Shown: positions 1,061 through 29,200 of the stretch, in pieces
Layout of the letters: every line of letters begins with the position of its first letter
How positions within the stretch are numbered: position 1 is the stretch's first letter
Origin: Mobula hypostoma
Lineage: Eukaryota
Length of the DNA: 64,000 bases
Assembly (NCBI RefSeq): GCF_963921235.1
Contig: NC_086097.1
Coordinates: forward strand, 12,462,001 to 12,526,000
Reading direction: 5' to 3'
Translations under genes and position numbers: made by a program
Notes under the pieces: model-generated
What the model was told of the DNA's origin: nothing
The model's input: only the letters and a program-made list of their open reading frames with translations
Databases searched by the model: none

Positions 1061-1769
1061 GCTGTTAAATGGCTGGTAGCAAAAAAATTAATCTTAAAGG
1101 GTCAGTATTTTCTGTTCTCTGTTAGAGGTTATGAGTGTATTATCTATAGTCTTTAACACTAATAATTGTTCACGGTCCTTTCAGCAAACAGAAGCAACAT
1201 TTGTGCAATCTGAAGCTCAGTTGTCCCTGCTTTATAAATTAAACATACTTCAGCTACCTGCAGAAATGAATGCATCAGTATCTTTAGAGACACTGTGACA
1301 TGATATCAATATTTAAAACCATCTTCTGCTTGTATTCTGGGTTGTCTGACTTCATTAACAACATTCATCATCAAACAAGAGGGAAGTATATTGTTTTCCC
1401 CTCACTGACTTAATAGCAGCACTCATTTAGACTGCGCAGTTCCAGACAACTTGTCTGGAATTTGACATTTCGGGAAGACAGGGCAGAAAGAGAAAAAGGA
1501 GGTGTGGTAGATTTGTTGATAAAGGGCAAGATCACTGAAGTTGTGAGGCACAAAAAACTGAGACGTTTCGATGGGGTAAGAAATAGTAAAGATGAGAAGT
1601 CCCTAGATAGCCCCAGAGACAGATGTATTGCAGGGCAGAGAAACGTCATAAAAAAAATAGAGGAAAAAAGAGAGAAAAAAAATTGTCTGGTACCTTCAAA
1701 CCTGATGGCATAAATATCAATTGTTTTCTTCCCGTAAACAAACATCCCCACCTTCCTTTTTTCTCCACT

Positions 1770-3250: not shown

Positions 3251-3890
3251 ATTTAGAGTGATAGTTTGTATATCTCAGCAAAGGTACATTCCAACGAGGA
3301 AGAAAGGTTCTACAAGAAAGAGTCACCACTCAATGCTAAGTACAAAAGTTAAAGATGGCAACATGAAGGAAAACAAAGATGTACAATTTGTGAAGATTAG
3401 TAATAAGCCAGTGGACTGGGAAATGTTAAAATCCAGAATGAACTTAGAAATAGAACATGAAGTATGGAGCATAGAATAGACGTCATCATCATCATTATGT
3501 ACCATGTGATATGGTGTAGGCGATCATGGTCTTTCCATGACCATGATTGTTCTTAGCAAATTTTTCCACCCAAGTTGTTTGCCATACTGCCATTCTCCTG
3601 CACATTACAGCACAAAATAGATGCTTTGCTCATAATATTGTGCTGAAATTTTAACCAATTCCAAGATCAGTCTAACCCCTCTTTCCCACATTGCCTTCCA
3701 TTTTTCTTTCACATGTGTGCCCATCTGTAAATTTTCCTCCAGGTGCTCCAGTTTCTTCTCAGTGTCCAAAGACGTATCAGACTTGGAGAAGACTTGATGG
3801 GCTGAATGGCCTAATTCTGCTGCTATGTCTTATGTCGTATGGTACCAGATCGTAGGTTAATTGGTCATTGAAAACAGTCCCATGATTAGG

Positions 3891-4591
3891 CAACATCTCT
3901 AGGAAGAGGTACAGTTGACATTTCAGGCCGAGACCCTTCGTCAGGACTAACTGAAGGAAGAGCTAGTAAGAGATTTGAAAGTGGGAGGGGGTGGGGGAGA
4001 TCCAAAATGATAGGAGAAGACAGGAGGGGGAGGGATGGAGCCAAGAGCTGGACAGGTGATTGGCAAAAGGGATATGAGAGGGTCATGGGACAGGAGGCCT
4101 AGGGAGAAGGAAAAGGGGGAGGGGGGGAAACCCAGAGGATGGGCAAGGGGTATAGTCAGAGGGACAGAAGGAGAAAAAGGAGAGAGAGACAAAGTATGTG
4201 TGTATATAAATAAATAACGGATGGGGTACAAGCGGGAGGTGGGGCATTAGCGCATGACACTCAGGTTGGAGGAACAACAACTTATATTCCATCTGGGTAG
4301 CCTCCAACCTGATGGCATGAACATTGACTTCTCTAACTTCCGCTAATGCCCCACCTTCCCCTCGTACCCCATCCATTATTTATCCTGTCTTCTCCTATCA
4401 TTTTTGATCTCCCCCTCGCCCTCCCACTTTCAAATCTCTTACTAGCTCTTCCTTCAGTTAGTCCTGACGAAGGGTCTCGGCCCGAAACGTCGACTGTACC
4501 TCTTCCTAGAGATGCTGCCTGGCCTGCTGCGTTCACCAGCAACTTTGATGTGCATTGCTTGAATTTCCAGCATCTGCAGAATTCCTCATGT
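3891..4591 (+). mobile_element. 5'-truncated Penelope-like element with inverted upstream pseudo-LTR, inserted in a SINE
   Basis: 3891-4252 is an inverted pLTR; 4253-4345 encodes the GIY-YIG C-terminus (LRLEEQQLIFHLGSLQPDGMNIDFSNF); 11-bp TSD ccatgattagg at 3880-3890 and 4592-4602. Confidence 0.88.
4460..4495 (+). ncRNA. Minimal type-I hammerhead ribozyme motif (Penelope-associated)
   Basis: agtc-CTGACGA-a-ggg(tctcgg)ccc-GAAA-cg-TC-gact: stem I agtc/gact, stem II ggg/ccc, palindromic ACGT in place of stem III. Confidence 0.8.
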
Positions 4592-5244
4592 CCATGATTA
4601 GGTTAGGGTTGCTGGGTGGTGCAGTTCAAAGGGCTGGAAGGGCCTATTCTGTTGTGTATCTTAAACTGATCAATCAATAAATCAAAAAATAAATAGACTG
4701 ATAGACAGATAGATAAGTAATACTGAGAACATGAGTTGTAGAGTCCTTGAAAGTGAATCCATAGTTTGTGGAATCAGTTCAGAGTTGAGATGAATGTAGT
4801 TAGCCACAATGGTTCAAGAGCCTGATGGTTGAAGGGTAATAACACTTGCTGAACCTGATGCTGTCGGACCTAAGGCTCCTGTACCTCCTTCCCAATGACA
4901 ACAGAGCGAAGGGAGCCTGGCCTGGATGGTAGATGTTTTTGATGATGGATGCTTCATTCTTTTTGCGGTCTCCCTGCCTTTTCATGTGTCTGTCTAAATG
5001 CCTCCTAAACTTTGCTACGGTATCTGCTTTTACTACCTCTCCTGGCAGCGTTTTCCAGCCCCAAGAAACTCTGTGTAAAAAAAACTTGGCTTGCACCATC
5101 TTCTCTAAACTTTCCCTTTTTCATCTTAAACCTGTGCCATCAGGTATTTGGCAAATGGAGAAAAGTATTTGATCTACTCTGTTTCTGCCTCTTAGCAGGT
5201 CAGGCAGCATCTGTGGAAGGTAAAACAGAGTTAATATTTGAGTA

Positions 5245-5780
5245 CACAGAGTCACAGAGTCATAGAAAAGTACAGCACATAAACAGGCCCTTCGGCCCAT
5301 CTAGTCAATACTGAAACCATTTAAACTGTCTGCTCCCATCGACCTGCACTGGGATCATAGTCCTCTATGTCCCTACTATCTACAAACTTCTTGTAACATT
5401 GAAATCGAGCTCACATGGACCGATAGTGCTGGCAACTCAGTCTACACTCTCATGGCTCTCTAAGTGAAGAAGCTTCTCCTCAAGTTTCCCTTCAACTTTT
5501 CACCTTTTGCACTCAGCTCATGACCTCTGGTTGTAGTCCCACCCATCCTCAGAGGAAAAAGCCTGCTTGCATTACCCCTCATAATTTTGCATACCTTTAT
5601 TAAATTTCCTCTGAATCTTTGACGTTCATCCTTGTAAATTTTCTCTGCACTCTTTCAAACTTGTTTACATCTTTCCTGTAGGTGGATGAACAAAACTGCA
5701 CATAATACTCCAGATTAGGCCCTACCAATGTCTTGTATATCTTCAACATAACATTCCATCTTATGTACTCAGTACTTTGT
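5245..5780 (-). mobile_element. CR1 3' fragment
   Basis: ORF 5600-5788 LKIYKTLVGPNLEYYVQF...ERVQRKFTRM; short-repeat tail at ~5245-5270. Confidence 0.85.
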
Positions 5781-5969
5781 TCTGACACTCTTCTATGGAA
5801 CTGGGAAGGAGAAAGTGGCTGCAGGATGTATGGTTTTCATGGATATATAGAAGGTAATTCAGCACTGATGGTTGTTATTACAGAAGTTGTGATGGATAAA
5901 AATGGGAAGTTTTGATGCACCCTTATAGAGCAGTGTGCTGGAGTACTACATAAGAGGCAAAGATTAAGT

Positions 5970-6600
5970 GGATAGCCAGAGCCTCTATCCCAGGGTGGAA
6001 ATGGCTAATACAAGGAGAGTATAGGAGGGGATATCAGAGGTAAGTTTTTTTGTTGCGATTGGTGGGTGCATTGAATACCCTGCCAGGGTTGGTGGTTGAG
6101 GCAGATACGTTAAGGACACTTAAGAGACTATTAGATAGGCGTTAAAGGCATCCATTAGTCTTGCGAGACGATGGATCTGTGCCTGGAAAGTCTTCACTCT
6201 CCAGGGCACAGGCCTGGGCAAGGTTGTATGGAAGACCAGCAGCTGCCCATGCAGCAAGTCTCCCCTCTCCACGACACCAATGTTGTCCAAGGGAAGGGCA
6301 TTAGGACCCATACAGCTTGGCACCAGTGTCGTCGCAGAGCAATGTGTGATTAAGTGCCTTGCTCAAGACACAACACGCTGCCTCAGCTGGGGCTCGAACT
6401 CACGACCTTCAGGTCGCTAGTCCAATGCCTTAACCACTTGGCCACGTGCTCATATGTAGGTAGGCATATGGATGATAGACAAATGGAGGGCTATGCAGGA
6501 TGGAAGGGTTACGTTGAACTTAGAGCAGGTTATAAGTTCAGCACTACATTGTGGGGTCAGTGCCTGTAGAATGTGGTGTTCTTTCTATATGTTCTATGTT
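5970..6600 (+). mobile_element. CR1 3' fragment interrupted by a SINE
   Basis: CR1 C-terminal coding remnants and tail ttctatatgttctatgttct; sequence resumes after 6457. Confidence 0.75.
6141..6452 (-). mobile_element. tRNA-derived SINE with CORE-like block and RTE-type 3' region
   Basis: Reverse strand: box A tggccaagtgg, box B gagttcgagcc, CORE-like gtgtcttgagcaaggcacttaa; imperfect TSD tagataggc/taggtaggc; second copy 46547-46850. Confidence 0.85.
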
Positions 6601-7687
6601 CTGTACAGTTTTGGTCTCCTTATTTAAAGGTTATGCTTGCAACTGAGGCCCTGCAGGTAAGCTTAACTCGGTTGATTTCTGGGTTGAAGGTGTTGACTTA
6701 TGAAGGAAGGTTGAACAGGTTGACTTGTATCCATTGGAGTACAGAAAAATGGGAGGTGATTTATTTAAACATATAAGATTCTGAAAGCACAGATGGTGAA
6801 AGGATGATTACCCTAATATAAATATCTAGAACTGAAAAAGCTGAATTTCAGTACAAAAAATTGTCCTTTATAAGGCGGAATTTCTTCTCTCAGATGGAAC
6901 GAACCTTCACAATTCTCTATTGCAGGGAGCTGTGGAGGTGAAGTCATTAACTATATCCAAGGAACAAAGTTCAAAGTAAATTTAAAACCGAAGTGCTGTA
7001 CAGATATGTCACCATGTGCAACCTGGGGTTTCATTTTCTTGCAGGCATTCACAATAAATACAAAGAAACAAAAACAAGTAAAATAATAATTAAGCAATTA
7101 ATATCAAGAAAATGTGATGAAGCATCCTTGAAAATGAGCCTACATCAGTGTTGGGTGGAGGCTGATAAAAAAGATTACTAGGCAGCCTTATATGGAGAGA
7201 AAATGTAGTTGAGGTCAAGAATAGACCAGCCTGGAAGAACCGATTTGAGAGAATGTCTGGTCTATTGGTCTGGCACTTAATATTCTTGTTTTCTTATGCA
7301 ATTAAAGTTAAACAGCCAAGATACTTTACTTCAGCATTCTATGGGGAATGATCTAAAAGTTCTGTTGAATTCCACATCATGGATGCACCAGGGACCATGT
7401 TCAATTCTAACTTGGGTGATGTTTGTGTGGAGTATATGCATCCTATGTCTGTTCCCCTCCTTTTGTCTTGTTTCTTCTCACATTCTAAAGATAAGCTGAG
7501 ATACCAAATGGCTACTGTAAGGTACCCCCTTCTTTTAATCACCTGGCAAAATGAACAAGGAAATGAGAATCATCCCCCATCATCTGCAGCTCACTATCCC
7601 CCACAACAAGGAGTTCAGCAACTTGTGTGGGACTACAACTAAGGGTCATGGGTTAAGGATGAAAGGTGAAAAGTTTAAGCAGCCTCT

Positions 7688-25368: not shown

Positions 25369-26015
25369 AAGACAGTAAGACCATAAGATACAAGAGGAGA
25401 ATCAAGTCTGTTCTGCCATTTCGTCATGGCTGATCCAATTTTTCTCTCAGCCCCAATCTCCTGCCTTCTCCCTGTATCATGCTCTGATCAATTAAGAATC
25501 TATCAACATCTGCCTTAAATATACATAAAGACTTGGTCTCCACAGCTGCCCGTGGCAAAAAATTCCACAGATTCAACAATCTCTGGCTAAATAAATTCCT
25601 CCTAATCTCTGTTTTAAAAGGATCCCTTTCTATTCTGCTCTGAGACTGTGTCCTCTGGTTTTAGACCCGTTCACCATTGGAAACATCCTCTCCACATCTG
25701 CTCTATTAAGGCCTTTCACCATTCAATAGGCTTCAATGAGATCACCCCTTATTCTTCTTGAATTCTGGTGAATACAGGCCCAGAGCCATCAAATGCTCTT
25801 CATGTGACAAGCTATTCCATCCTGGAATCATTTTCATGAACCTCCTTTGAACACTCGCCAGTTTCAGCACATCCTTTCTAAGGTGAGAGGCCCAAAACTG
25901 CTCATAATACTCCAGGTGAGGCCTCACCAGTGCTTTATAAAGTCTCAACATTACATCGTGCTTTTCTATTTTGGTCTTCTTGAAATGAATGCTAACATTA
26001 CATTTACCTTCCTCA
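25369..26015 (-). mobile_element. CR1 3' fragment nested in an RTE-derived element
   Basis: ORF 25742-25951 LYKALVRPHLEY; family B sequence stops at 25368 and resumes at ~26030. Confidence 0.88.
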
Positions 26016-26778
26016 CCCAGACTGAACCTGCATAATGGCTGGGTTCACCAGTCTTGTAAATACACTGCCTGGAAGAAGACAATGGCAAACCCAAAATTTT
26101 CCATGAACAATCATGGTTAAAGACCAGGATCACCCATGTGATAGACATAGTACATAATAATGATGATGATAATGATAATATATTCTTTTCACAATTTATA
26201 GTGTTTTTTATTATTAATTGCACTGTACTGTTGTTGCAAACAACAAATTTCACAACATATGCCTGTGATTTTAAGCCTGATTCTGATTCTGACAGACCCC
26301 CATCACCTAGAACATGTTCTTTTCTCATTACTACCAGCAGAGAGGAGATACTGAAACCTGAAGACACACACTCAATGAGGGTAATGGGGCTATTATACTA
26401 CAGAGTCTTGTGCAGCAGGTTCCTATTAAATTTTGCTTCTCTCACCTTAGAACATATGTCTTCTATTTTCTTGATCTCCAGCCCTGGGAAAGAGACTGCA
26501 TACATTCACCCTATCCAGGCCCCTCATAATTTTATACACCAAAGATCATAGTGTCTCACACTCCAGTGGATAAAGTCTCCCACTATATCTGATTGAATGG
26601 TGGAGCAGACTCGATGGGCTGAATAGACTAATTCTGCTCTAATGTCTTATGATCTCAGAGTTTTAGGAACAGCTTCTTCCCCTCCATCATCAGATTTGAA
26701 TGGCCCATGAACCCATGAACACTATTTTGAGCTTGTGGCACTATTTAGTTATTTTGATAGATTCTTATTGTAACTTAT

Positions 26779-27358
26779 TACCGGTTCCGGTTTGGCCGCC
26801 GGCCGCTCGACCATAATTTTCGGTTGGGCGCCGGATGCTTGGAGAGATTCGGCAGGGGACGAGTGCCCGGTGCTCGGCCGGGGGCTGTGATCGAGTGGTC
26901 GGCAGCTTGGGCCAGCTGCCCCACCGGACTTAGTCTGGTGAGGAGGGTGTGAGGACACCCAGCAGGACTGAAAAAAAACAAGACCTGACAAAGGGTGGAT
27001 GAGCTCCTTGTGAGCCAATGGCCATCTTCCGTGGAAGAGATTAAAGCCTCACCATGTATCTATGAATTGTATGCTATGCACCTAGTTAGAAGAGACATGA
27101 TGAACTTGGGCGCTGCCCCGTGTGTCTGGACCTGCCCAAGGCCTCCGCCTAAGGAAGGGCCGAGCTCGAAGAAGCGGCCACGGCTGGAGGCTGACACGGC
27201 CTCGGGCTCAAGTTTGGCAGGGGCAGCGGCGGGCGGTGCCAAGGCAGCCAGCAAGAACAAATTGGAGGAGAGCCTGTACTCGGTGCTGTCACAAGATCGA
27301 AGAAGATGGAGGTGCATAGCCACCAAACCCAGATTCGGGACGGCACCCACTGACTAAC
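26779..27358 (+). mobile_element. GC-rich non-autonomous retroelement with RTE-type tail and captured gene fragment (family C)
   Basis: TSD tgtaacttat (26769-26778)/tgtagcttat (27359-27368) inside a Rex1 3' UTR; 3' end encodes QDRRRWRCIATKPRFGTAP, resembling RTE ORF termini (DRxxWR...GT). Confidence 0.7.
27112..27289 (+). pseudogene. ZFTRAF1: Circularly permuted fragment resembling the ZFTRAF1/CYHR1 N-terminal coding region
   Basis: 27154-27289 = EGPSSKKRPRLEA...KNKLEESLYSVL; 27111-27149 in another frame = (R)[12 protein letters not shown]; human ZFTRAF1 as I recall it reads PPKKRLR...[26 protein letters not shown]. Confidence 0.8.
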
Positions 27359-27939
27359 TGTAGCTTATAGTGATTTTTATGTCTTGCTCTGAACTGCTGC
27401 TGCAAAACAACCAATTTCACAAACTATGTCAGTGATAATAAACTTGATTCTTCCATGCTTCCCAGTAATCATCAGTATGATGCGGCAGCTATGAACTCTA
27501 TCAGAGAGACACAACATGGACACAGCCCTCCCAGCCTACCAGCTCCACTCCAACCATCAACCACCACCCAGTCGCACTAATATTAATCCCGTTTATTTAT
27601 TCTCCCCTTATTCTCATTAACTCTCTCCCTCCCTCCTCCAGATTTTACCAGTCACTTACACATTAGGAGCAATTAACAGTGGCCAATTAACCTCGCAACC
27701 TTCGCGTCCATGGGACAAAGACAGAAACAAGGGCAGCCAGAGGAAATCCACACAGCCAGGAGGAGATCCTGCAAACTCTACACCGTTGGCAGTTGATGTG
27801 AGGACTGAGAACCGGTCTCTGGTGCTTCGAGGCCATGGCACTACAAACTGTGCCACTCAGTATGAAGAACAAAAATACTGAGGAACACAGTCAATGGCCA
27901 ACTCATTGTGCACATCTGTTTAACGCTCTTTAACGCAAA

Positions 27940-28560
27940 TCAAGTCAAGTCAAGTTTATTGTCATTTTGACCATAAGCTGCTGGTACAGTACACAGTAAA
28001 AACAAAATAACATTCCTCCAGGACCCTGGTGCTACATGAAACAACACAAAACTACACTAGACTATGTGAGACAGCACAAGGCTACTCTAGACTATGTAAA
28101 ACAACATAAAAACTACACTAGACTACAGACCTACACAGGACTACATAAAGTGCACAAAACAGTACAGGGCAGTACAATAATTAATAAACAAGACAATAGG
28201 CACAGTAGAGGACAAATTACAATATAATAATAAATGATGTAGATGTCAGTCTAGACTCTGAGTATTGAGGAGTCTGATGGCTTGGGGGAAGAAACTGTTG
28301 CACAGTCTGGTTGTGAGAGCCCAAATGCTTCGGTGCCTTTTGCCAGATGGCAGGAGGGGAAGAGTTTATCTGAGGGGTGCGTGGGGTCCTTCACAATACT
28401 GTTTGCTTTGCGGGTGCAGCGTACGGTGTAAATGCCTGTTATGGCGGGAAGAGAGACCCCGATGATCTTCTCAGCTGACCTCACTATCCGCTGCAGGGCC
28501 TTGCGATCCAAGACGGTGCAATTTCCGAACCAGGCAGTGATGCAGCTGCTCAGGATGCCC
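27940..28560 (-). mobile_element. Rex1/Babar 3' fragment
   Basis: ORF 28251-28511 DRKALQRIVRSAEKIIG...SIVKDPTHP; (acttg)n tail. Confidence 0.88.
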
Positions 28561-28564
28561 TCGA

Positions 28565-29200
28565 TATCTCATCAGCTAATAATGTGACAGCAACTCGATG
28601 CAGAAAAGCATACAAACACGTTCAAGAGGTTCAGTTGTTGTTCAGATCAAACATCAGAATGGAGAAAGAAACATGATCTAAGTGACTCTGGCTGTGGAAT
28701 AACTGTTGGTGTCAGACAGGATGGATTAGGTATCTCAGAAACTGCTGGGATTTTTATTTATTTAGTGATGCAGCATGGTATATATAGGTCCTAAGGCCCT
28801 TTGAGCCACGTCACCCCAGCAACCCTCGACAGCCCTGATTTACCCTAACCTAATCATGGGATTATGTCTTTTTCATGCACAACAGTCTCTAGGGTATACA
28901 GAGAATGGTGTGAAAAACAAGAAAAAATAGCATCCGGTGAGCAGCAGTTCTATGGGCAAAAGCACATTGCTATCAGAGAGATCAGAGGAGAATGGCCAGA
29001 CTGTTTCAAGATGACAAGAATGTGACAGTAACTCAAATAACCACGTGTCACAACAGTGGTATGCAGAGCAGCCCCTCTGAATGCACAACACGTCAAACCT
29101 TGAAATGAGCGTTCTGCAGCAGCAGAAGATCATGAACATGCGCTCAGTAACCACTTTATTAGCTATAGGAGGTACCTATAGCTCAGTGGCCACTGAGCGT
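28565..29200 (+). mobile_element. Tc1-family derivative, second copy
   Basis: Colinear with 7980-8470; terminal TIR hairpin 29141-29199; short SINE/LINE tail inserted ~28760-28870. Confidence 0.8.

Follow-up and report, generated by a model that had tools for sequence, protein, structure and literature searches.

A LINE-derived retroposon family of Mobula hypostoma with a circularly permuted segment of ZFTRAF1 exon 1 at its core

[quoted passage not shown] This host segment stands in place of about 2.9 kb of the interior of a long interspersed nuclear element (LINE), putatively of the RTE type, and target-primed reverse transcription has carried the chimera to some 750-1800 places in the genome. 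With regard to its origin, it is moderately probable that the chimera arose at the RNA level, the LINE reverse transcriptase having jumped end to end onto a ZFTRAF1 RNA that had been broken once.

Results

Exact Circular Permutation of a ZFTRAF1 Segment

Translation of positions 27154-27291 gave EGPSSKKRPRLEADTASGSSLAGAAAGGAKAASKNKLEESLYSVLS, which begins with EGPSSKKRPRLEAD and ends with KNKLEESLYSVLS, and the piece immediately upstream (27112-27151), read in another frame, encoded 12 residues followed by a stop. Comparison of the 46-residue query with 5.8 billion proteins (longer proteins only) produced one match, namely, ZFTRAF1 isoform X2 of Pristis pectinata (P0002; E-value = 1.2e-6), with 32 of 48 residues identical over residues 65-112 in the BLASTP alignment; in this protein, a 10-residue stretch is contiguous with the subsequent 15-residue stretch. 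The host gene was then sought in the 3.48-Gb assembly (G000), where the genome's own ZFTRAF1 was located on contig C5 as four exon matches with 86-98% identity. Positions 27152-27289 corresponded to 1691-1554 of exon 1 at the host locus L024 (BLASTN, 126/138 identical, E-value = 2e-53), and positions 27112-27151 corresponded to 1553-1514 (BLASTN, 37/40 identical, E-value = 3e-12). The two host stretches adjoin at 1554/1553, and the two window stretches adjoin at 27151/27152 in the opposite order. The initial annotation, made from the sequence alone, had proposed a ZFTRAF1 origin, two pieces adjacent in the host gene, and a permutation of 178 bp without loss or gain of a base, all of which is borne out by the protein match and by the DNA match to the genome's own exon 1. 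The internal junction had been placed at about 27150 in this annotation, and the correct position is gcctccgccta/aggaaggg at 27151/27152.

Exon 1 of the host gene ends at L024 1510 and is followed by gt, in agreement with the colinearity of the protein (...VYQ in exon 1, CTNGH... in exon 2). The permuted segment starts 145 nt downstream of the start codon, within exon 1, and ends 4 nt before the 3' end of this exon (...GTCTA/CCAG/gtacag); it lies entirely inside the GC-rich exon and includes no intronic or upstream sequence. The part of the gene that the family has spread encodes ZFTRAF1 residues of about 64-125, a conserved coding region, and the host piece is in the sense orientation, the same as that of the LINE.

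Between the majority consensus of 26 family copies and the permuted host segment there were 3 differences in 178 positions and no indel, and therefore the source was the own gene of this lineage; the window copy differed at 15 of the 178 positions. Exon 1 of the present-day ZFTRAF1 is a single colinear copy. The native host order, searched for as a 26-mer with ≤2 mismatches, was present at one genomic place, which was ZFTRAF1 itself, and the same genome-wide search revealed no family copy in which the native junction had been restored. The host locus is thus without the permuted order, as had been anticipated in the initial annotation.

Retroposon Family

The family search gave 1825 first-look candidates, 40 of which were scored, one of them being the window copy itself. 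The 39 other scored copies had 88-91% identity to the window copy, and identity of the copies to their own consensus was 92.5-96%. A 21-mer spanning the closing junction, at which the two ends that the 178-bp segment has in the gene are joined, was found with ≤2 mismatches at 740 genomic places (361 on the plus and 379 on the minus strand) versus 0 for the reversed control. The first 100 of these 740 places listed were on 7 contigs, all outside the ZFTRAF1 locus, and the tail motif was found at 1094 genomic places. In 26 of the 26 aligned copies, all with the element flanks present, the permutation and the three junctions were identical; since all copies have the same three blunt junctions, the chimera arose once.

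The marks of target-primed reverse transcription were as follows. The 3' ends of the copies read ...CACCCACTGAC(TGAC)n. Exact flanking repeats of at least 8 bp were found in 14 of the 26 copies versus 1.6% of 500 mismatched-pair controls, and 5' truncation with the common 3' end intact was observed in 4 of 26 copies, which started at element positions 103-203. The window copy was inserted in an older interspersed repeat and is flanked by a 10-bp duplication with one mismatch. Mobilization is presumably performed by the LINE enzyme, which would recognize the shared 3' end. It should be noted that the derivative outnumbers its parent, with 740-1825 places versus 62 LINE 5' ends and 352 LINE 3' ends (first-look candidates).

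The retained LINE 5' end presumably serves as a promoter. An origin of the head from a polymerase III gene or another RNA family was considered and rejected: ARAGORN detected 0 tRNA genes, and the Rfam search gave two sub-threshold matches only (21.5 and 18.5 bits versus gathering scores of 83 and 40). The expectations of a retroelement carrier and of many copies sharing the permutation, both put forward in the initial annotation, were thus realized in the target-site duplications, 5' truncations, (TGAC)n tail, and 740 junction places. The head is not from a polymerase III gene, so that the family is no classical short interspersed nuclear element (SINE).

An insert-free ancestor, searched for as the end of the left arm followed within 0-20 nt by the start of the right arm, gave 0 exact matches, and neither blastn nor tblastx revealed further copies or LINE relatives in the window or in the locus flanks. 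One rearranged copy was noticed at locus L046 (G000:C1:244466666-244468300), in which consensus positions 458-502 adjoin 11-193 and are followed after about 800 bp by the 3' end (490-586).

A stop-free frame of 122 codons is kept in many copies. In Pfam, the 122-aa frame belonged to no family, and none of 27 candidates of 67-214 aa was a similar predicted protein. The open frame of 86 codons (Table 1) may have arisen by chance (about 1 in 9), or it may help the RNA to meet the LINE protein at the ribosome.

Partner LINE and Origin of the Two Arms

The partner LINE was sampled at 15 loci that had the tail motif but no exact junction match. Twelve of them proved to be the element itself (5 copies of near full length, 6 5'-truncated copies, and 1 rearranged copy) and 3 were LINE 3' ends. 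Upstream of the shared last ~68 bp, the latter three read ...GMIEGKRERGRQRTTWYDNVRQWTGLSYAEARKR(V/A)QDRRRWRCIAANPGFGTAPTD and then a stop codon, which is located inside the TGAC repeats; the reading of the LINE 3' end at these 3 of 15 loci was ...GRQRTTWYDNVRQWTGLSYAEARKR(V/A)QDRRRWR...APTD and stop. The 3' kilobase of the LINE gave 352 first-look candidates with 93-94% identity, whereas its 5' region gave only 62.

The C-terminal 348 residues of the LINE open reading frame (ORF) matched RVT_1 (8e-22). Its database relatives are proteins of about 1000 aa with an AP-type endonuclease (PF03372/PF14529) and a reverse transcriptase (PF00078), encoded in contigs of 3.2-3.7 kb, and some of them bear the name craniofacial development protein 2 or endonuclease-reverse transcriptase. 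In the decayed LINE copy L060, Pfam found RVT_1 and did not detect the endonuclease domain. The LINE ORF stops inside the first TGAC repeats of its tail, so the 3' untranslated region (UTR) is very short and the end is a simple repeat; in LINEs of the RTE clade, the 3' UTR is likewise very short and finishes with a simple repeat instead of poly(A). The partner is probably a 3.2-kb LINE of the RTE type, as judged from the domain architecture.

In L060, which is near full length (3.2-kb span), consensus positions 115-325 corresponded to 3763-3976 and the tail corresponded to 6917-6992. The arms are therefore about 2.9 kb apart in this copy (3976 to 6917), and the element has 178 bp of host sequence there instead. 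Consensus positions 115-326 (window ~26888-27100) matched 11 of 13 other LINE 5' ends fully, with 84-89% identity, and two partially, from 201 or 213; the 14th fetched 5' locus (L061) was the query copy L060 itself and was excluded. After a 10-bp gap, the match of the left arm extends to ...CTGGGC in the LINE. In the alignment, the LINE reads ...GAGACATG-CGTTGTGCAG-ATGAACCTGGGC up to the arm boundary and CCCTTGCG... beyond it, and the element reads ...GAGACATG-ATGAACTTGGGC and then GCTGCACC.... At the other side, the last ~76 bp and the (TGAC)n are common to truncated and full-length LINE copies (92-97%), and divergence begins exactly at the arm boundary. Since LINE ends are aligned at both arms, the element is an internally deleted derivative of that LINE. 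A candidate arrangement in which the arms would be contiguous in the LINE ('DELGPQDRRRWR') proved to be wrong, the arms being about 2.9 kb apart and the tail being preceded by ...AEARKR(V/A).

Compared with the LINE, the element's 5' end is rearranged, with about 100 bp, 7 bp, and 10 bp missing and an inverted duplication at the very start, and the first ~110 bp are only partly LINE-like. The extreme 5' end (consensus 15-42; window ~26793-26820) is an inverted copy of a segment of the LINE 5' UTR at ~113-141 (window ~26886-26915), with 25 of 28 bases matching L060 3788-3761, and looks like a footprint of snap-back or twin priming; in the window copy, this inverted repeat was not detected, having decayed there.

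Junctions and Predicted Folding

The first join connects the left arm (...TTGGGC) to the downstream piece of the host segment (piece B in Table 1), which opens with GCTGCACC. At the second, the closing junction, piece B (...CCG(C/T)CTA) passes into piece A, which opens with AGGAAGGG, and at the third, piece A (...GGTGCTGT) meets the right arm (CGCAAGATCG). The three joins are uniformly blunt, and comparison with the LINE and host flanks revealed neither microhomology nor filler bases. The closing junction, at which the initial annotation had suggested looking for microhomology, shares 0 nt, as the host sequence goes on with cc beyond one side and has gg before the other; none of the copies had 1-6 extra bases at this place. 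Here a base that lies 4 nt before the exon-1 donor adjoins one inside exon 1, and neither is a splice site.

The point at which the unit is opened, GCUGU/GCUGC (27289/27112; host L024 about 1546-1561, minus strand), is the centre of an inverted repeat with a 5-bp stem and a 6-nt loop. This repeat is GGTGC-TGTGCT-GCACC in DNA, and the predicted hairpin is GGUGC-UGUGCU-GCACC; in the predicted folds of the 178-nt piece and of the whole exon, the opening point is unpaired with a probability of 0.77-1.0. A 12-mer with one mismatch is common to piece A (27163-27174, AGCTCGAAGAAG) and the right arm (27294-27305, AGATCGAAGAAG); it lies off all junctions and is probably due to chance.

Sequencing Runs

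The sequencing runs were available as assembled contigs only, with an RNA label that is a guess, and four of them were compared over 26300-27900. For the window, they consisted mostly of short repeat contigs, from which start, strand, and expression level are not readable and in which uncovered parts mean nothing. Host exon 1 was near-identical in the runs of two organisms (A and B). DNA contigs of both organisms bridged the 3' junction of the element into the same flank, with 0 differences in run X13 (27323-27900) and 14 differences in run X8 (27311-27900), and therefore the window insertion is common to both. In X8, LINE-type sequence forms a loose contig end that starts exactly at 27290, in confirmation of the right-arm boundary. 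The closing junction is spanned by short contigs in X1 and X3, whose guessed label is RNA; these contigs are at most a weak hint of transcription.

Feature Coordinates and Neighbouring Repeats

The coordinates of the features are given in Table 1.

Table 1. Features of the retroposon copy and its flanks in the window.
Feature	Position	Strand	Description
5' target-site duplication copy	26769-26778		TGTAACTTAT; matches 27359-27368 at 9/10 bases
Retroposon copy, full length, 580 bp	26779-27358	+	Internally deleted derivative of the LINE of putative RTE type
Head and left arm	26779-27111	+	LINE 5' end; ends ...ATGATGAACTTGGGC
Open frame, 86 codons	27097-27357	+	From the putative LINE start codon through B (shifted frame) and A (ZFTRAF1 frame) to the last 22 codons of the LINE and stop
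Piece B	27112-27151	+	ZFTRAF1 exon-1 bases downstream in the gene; L024 1553-1514, 37/40; ends 4 nt before the splice donor
Piece A	27152-27289	+	ZFTRAF1 exon-1 bases upstream in the gene (EGPSSKKRPRLEAD...); L024 1691-1554, 126/138; ZFTRAF1 frame, sense
Right arm	27290-27358	+	Last ~76 bp of the LINE: last 22 codons (SQDRRRWRCIA..GTAPTD), stop, decayed (TGAC)n tail
3' target-site duplication copy	27359-27368		TGTAGCTTAT; partner of 26769-26778

Several other repeats surround the element. Positions 26202-26354 and 27374-27450 (plus strand) are two copies of one older repeat tail (...ctgctgcaaaacaaccaatttcac...gataataaac..gattct), in the second of which the element was inserted. An extremely abundant repeat occupies 26570-26731, with a summed word depth of DNA contigs of about 1.4 million in X8 versus tens in unique flanks, and many contigs skip about 283-290 bases between ~26375 and ~26665. 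Two frames on the minus strand, 25742-26044 and 28251-28568 (100 and 105 codons; ..LYKALVRPHLEY.., ..ITAWFGNCT..RKALQRIV..), are what we take to be C-terminal parts of reverse-transcriptase ORFs from other LINEs. Elsewhere in the genome, at locus L031 (G000:C78:36063000-36072000), a 285-codon frame on the minus strand (4861-5715) with a GIY-YIG-like motif (..GLLYIGETRRRLGDHFAEH..) adjoins a copy of the element and presumably represents a Penelope-like element, to judge from its appearance. A 294-aa open frame at G000:C78 was considered as a longer form of the element and rejected, as it is a read-through from the element copy into the neighbouring GIY-YIG ORF.

Discussion

Origin of the Chimera

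The outer ends of the permuted segment are neighbouring bases of the gene, and independent breaks would abut in about 1 of a few hundred cases; therefore, the template was opened by a single break. A single cut also explains why exactly one unit was copied. The exact unit length speaks strongly for one break in one molecule as the source of both outer ends; capture as a circle, assumed in the initial annotation, would fit this for RNA or DNA, and a linear RNA nicked once and copied by end-to-end template jumps fits equally well.

We consider an origin at the RNA level moderately probable. Within one reverse-transcription event, the enzyme would copy a broken 3' fragment of the LINE RNA and jump end to end onto the 3' end (...GCUGU) of ZFTRAF1 exon-1 RNA opened by a single cut in the hairpin loop; it would then copy across the meeting point of the 178-nt ends (GUCUA/AGGAAGGG) to the other side of the cut (GCUGC...) and finally jump onto a 5' fragment of the LINE RNA. 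The RNA level is supported by the sense orientation, by the restriction to exon sequence with a limit 4 nt short of the exon's natural 3' end, and by the uniformly blunt joins. We infer a link between this limit and the first splicing step, which would set free a first exon ending at the exon boundary. Blunt joins have been reported for end-to-end template jumping by the reverse transcriptases of non-LTR elements (R2) and are discussed in PMC3414825.

The template of an RNA-level origin could have had two forms. It may be suggested, tentatively, that a linear 178-nt RNA was nicked once and that its parts, held together by folding, were bridged by a further template jump, in which case the enzyme would enter at the nick, run off at the 5' end, jump to the sibling 3' end, and return to the nick. 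A non-spliceosomal RNA circle with covalently joined ends, nicked later, is somewhat more doubtful. If RNA and DNA are taken together, a covalently closed 178-nt non-spliceosomal circle (RNA ligated end to end or nucleosome-sized DNA) that was opened once and copied or ligated between the LINE ends is a serious possibility, though short of a probable one.

Several observations weigh against an RNA-level origin. The blunt joins, the one-unit length, and the opening at an inverted repeat are equally expected from an end-joined linearized DNA circle, and the sense orientation is merely a twofold argument. The position in a hairpin loop is a weak indication, as about 15% of the bases in the predicted 178-nt fold sit in hairpin loops, and the cleavage sites have no common sequence. 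The 178-nt fold is not significantly stable (z = -1.85; 7 of 200 shuffles fold as well), and no pairing is predicted between its 5' and 3' ends, which gives no support for a self-closing structure. For RTE-type enzymes, the template-jump step would be an extrapolation borrowed from work on R2 and L1. Finally, no present-day circle or nicked fragment was observed in the runs, which are assembled contigs with a guessed RNA label and in which sequence from the family's own copies would hide a circle of the host gene.

The main rival is capture at the DNA level, in which a circle of microDNA size from ZFTRAF1 exon 1 was cut once and end-joined into a genomic LINE that lost 2.9 kb, giving rise to the master copy. 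MicroDNA circles are 100-400 bp in length, come from GC-rich genic 5' regions, and have short direct repeats at the circle junction, and a circle that re-integrates is expected to leave an insert in circularly permuted form. The size of about 180 bp (178 bp exactly), the GC-rich 5' exon, and the permutation of exactly one unit agree with these features, as do the three blunt joins and the opening at the centre of the GGTGC..GCACC inverted repeat, where a DNA hairpin is possible. However, the closing junction lacks microhomology, which counts mildly against capture of DNA; the insert is co-oriented with the LINE transcript, which would have to be chance (1 in 2), and the 3' boundary 4 nt from the exon end, an RNA landmark, would have to be chance as well (roughly 5 in 300), with no intronic or upstream sequence carried along. 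The same three points (the junction without microhomology, the sense orientation, and the 3' end beside the end of exon 1) tell against the microDNA version advanced in the initial annotation, and we regard DNA capture as unlikely. For their own internally deleted elements, Eickbush and Eickbush favoured non-homologous DNA recombination (PMC3414825).

Copying of a spliceosomal circular RNA (circRNA) is very improbable. It would require back-splicing of the exon-1 donor (CCAG/gt) to a cryptic exon-1 acceptor (ctggag/gaaggg) and a later loss of CC, the expected product being ...ctaccaggaaggg. The piece does end merely 4 nt from the donor, and some 35 nt upstream of the point at which piece A begins there are a pyrimidine run and a ctaac branch-like motif. 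The junction nevertheless reads cta/aggaaggg in 26 of 26 copies, a few of which vary at the base four upstream, and is present at 740 places, and the 0 copies with 1-6 extra bases leave the 2-bp deletion an ad hoc supposition; moreover, a first exon has no natural acceptor, and a nearer AG (cgcag/g) would be the expected one. Since the permutation junction is off the splice sites, the segment is not a copy of a spliceosomal circRNA. There is a precedent in circRNA-derived pseudogenes with back-splice junctions, such as the 33 mouse loci with the circRFWD2 exon 6-exon 2 junction (Dong et al. 2016, PMC4897178). These resemble the present family in their non-colinear host exon sequence, in one junction repeated at many loci, and in an association with retroelements; they differ in that theirs is a canonical back-splice between whole exons, whereas the junction described here lies inside a first exon at non-splice positions, and here exactly one unit forms the body of a retroposon with LINE arms and >700 copies. 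As the junction proved not to be a back-splice, the family does not belong to circRNA-derived pseudogenes in the published sense. Dong et al. (PMC4897178) also name, as an alternative, reverse transcription across an open, folded RNA with nearby ends.

Comparably slight is the likelihood of a coincidence, that is, of independent internal template switches on a linear ZFTRAF1 mRNA with an exit that abuts the entry by chance. Template-switch chimeras are common products of LINE enzymes; however, exact adjacency of two independent breaks would occur in about 1 of 200-500 cases, given the exon length. In-vivo jumps to U12 and tRNA have been reported (PMC3414825). As for the simple double template switching offered as an alternative in the initial annotation, the carrier is an internally deleted LINE of putative RTE type, and therefore at least three joins are needed. 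A permuted order already present in the host, in a paralogue or in an ancestral ZFTRAF1 allele with a tandem duplication, is close to refuted for this genome: nothing was found in its favour, it leaves the exact unit length unexplained, and it disagrees with the single colinear exon 1, with the native junction present once in the genome, with the first 100 listed junction places, all outside ZFTRAF1, and with the element flanks of the 26 aligned copies.

Comparison with Known Systems

With its LINE 5' end, LINE 3' end and tail, absent coding interior, and marks of target-primed reverse transcription, the element is, judging by its layout, a member of the class of Short Internally Deleted Elements (SIDEs), to which R2Dwi_SIDE and the R2/R1 hybrid SIDEs of Drosophila belong (Eickbush and Eickbush 2012, PMC3414825). 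As described there, SIDEs are likewise about 0.5 kb in length, take both ends from an autonomous LINE, lack the ORF, are mobilized via the shared 3' end, and have no polymerase III origin, and R2Dwi_SIDE (529 bp) likewise contains a central 197 bp of unexplained non-LINE sequence (PMC3414825). Compared with these SIDEs, the centre of the present element is a traceable host coding exon in circularly permuted form, its parent is a genome-wide LINE, putatively of the RTE type, rather than a ribosomal-DNA specialist, and its copies number hundreds to thousands.

The element works like a template-jump chimera that has turned into a master copy. U6-L1 and mRNA-L1 chimeras are retrocopies made by LINEs through template switching. 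In these chimeras, as here, a sense cellular RNA is joined to a LINE 3' part by blunt or nearly blunt joins, and target-site duplications flank the product; the known ones, however, mostly exist as one dead copy each, in which the cellular part is colinear and lies at the 5' end, whereas in the present family the cellular part is internal, permuted, and enclosed by both LINE ends, and the chimera is a prolific master copy. R2 5' junctions with U12 small nuclear RNA and tRNA are described in PMC3414825.

In borrowing a short 3' end with a simple-repeat tail from a LINE of putative RTE type, the non-autonomous element also resembles the RTE-derived SINEs, which were reportedly described by Malik and Eickbush in 1998 and by Kojima in 2018; it differs from them in having no tRNA, 5S, or 7SL head, its head being the LINE's own 5' end. 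In the literature, searched without the repeat databases Repbase and Dfam and without subscription journals, no exactly permuted host exon was found as the core of an amplified retroposon. A search for ZFTRAF1/CYHR1 together with retrotransposon or SINE gave nothing relevant among the papers listed, but it discriminates poorly and does not show that the family is undescribed.

Significance of the Family

Where the central part of a non-autonomous retroposon comes from is usually not known, whereas the pedigree of the present family can be read base by base: its arms come from an identified partner LINE, its core comes from a named host exon, and hundreds of copies retain its three joins. As a natural footprint, the one-unit permutation is rare, and it restricts the template to a molecule with a single break, which would be a circle or else a folded RNA with a nick. 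Consequently, the family is a concrete substrate for the study of template jumping by enzymes of the putative RTE type and of circle-like retrocopies formed without back-splicing. About 1000 copies of a conserved coding segment could confuse the annotation of genes and circRNAs, since reads across the junction mimic a back-splice. If the template was indeed a closed circle, the family would be the first natural case of a circle-derived host coding sequence amplified as the core of a mobile element. In principle, silencing of the transposon could be coupled to the host gene, and in the case of a closed circle, small-RNA silencing directed at the family would involve near-perfect complementarity, over ≤138 nt, to a conserved coding region of the host.

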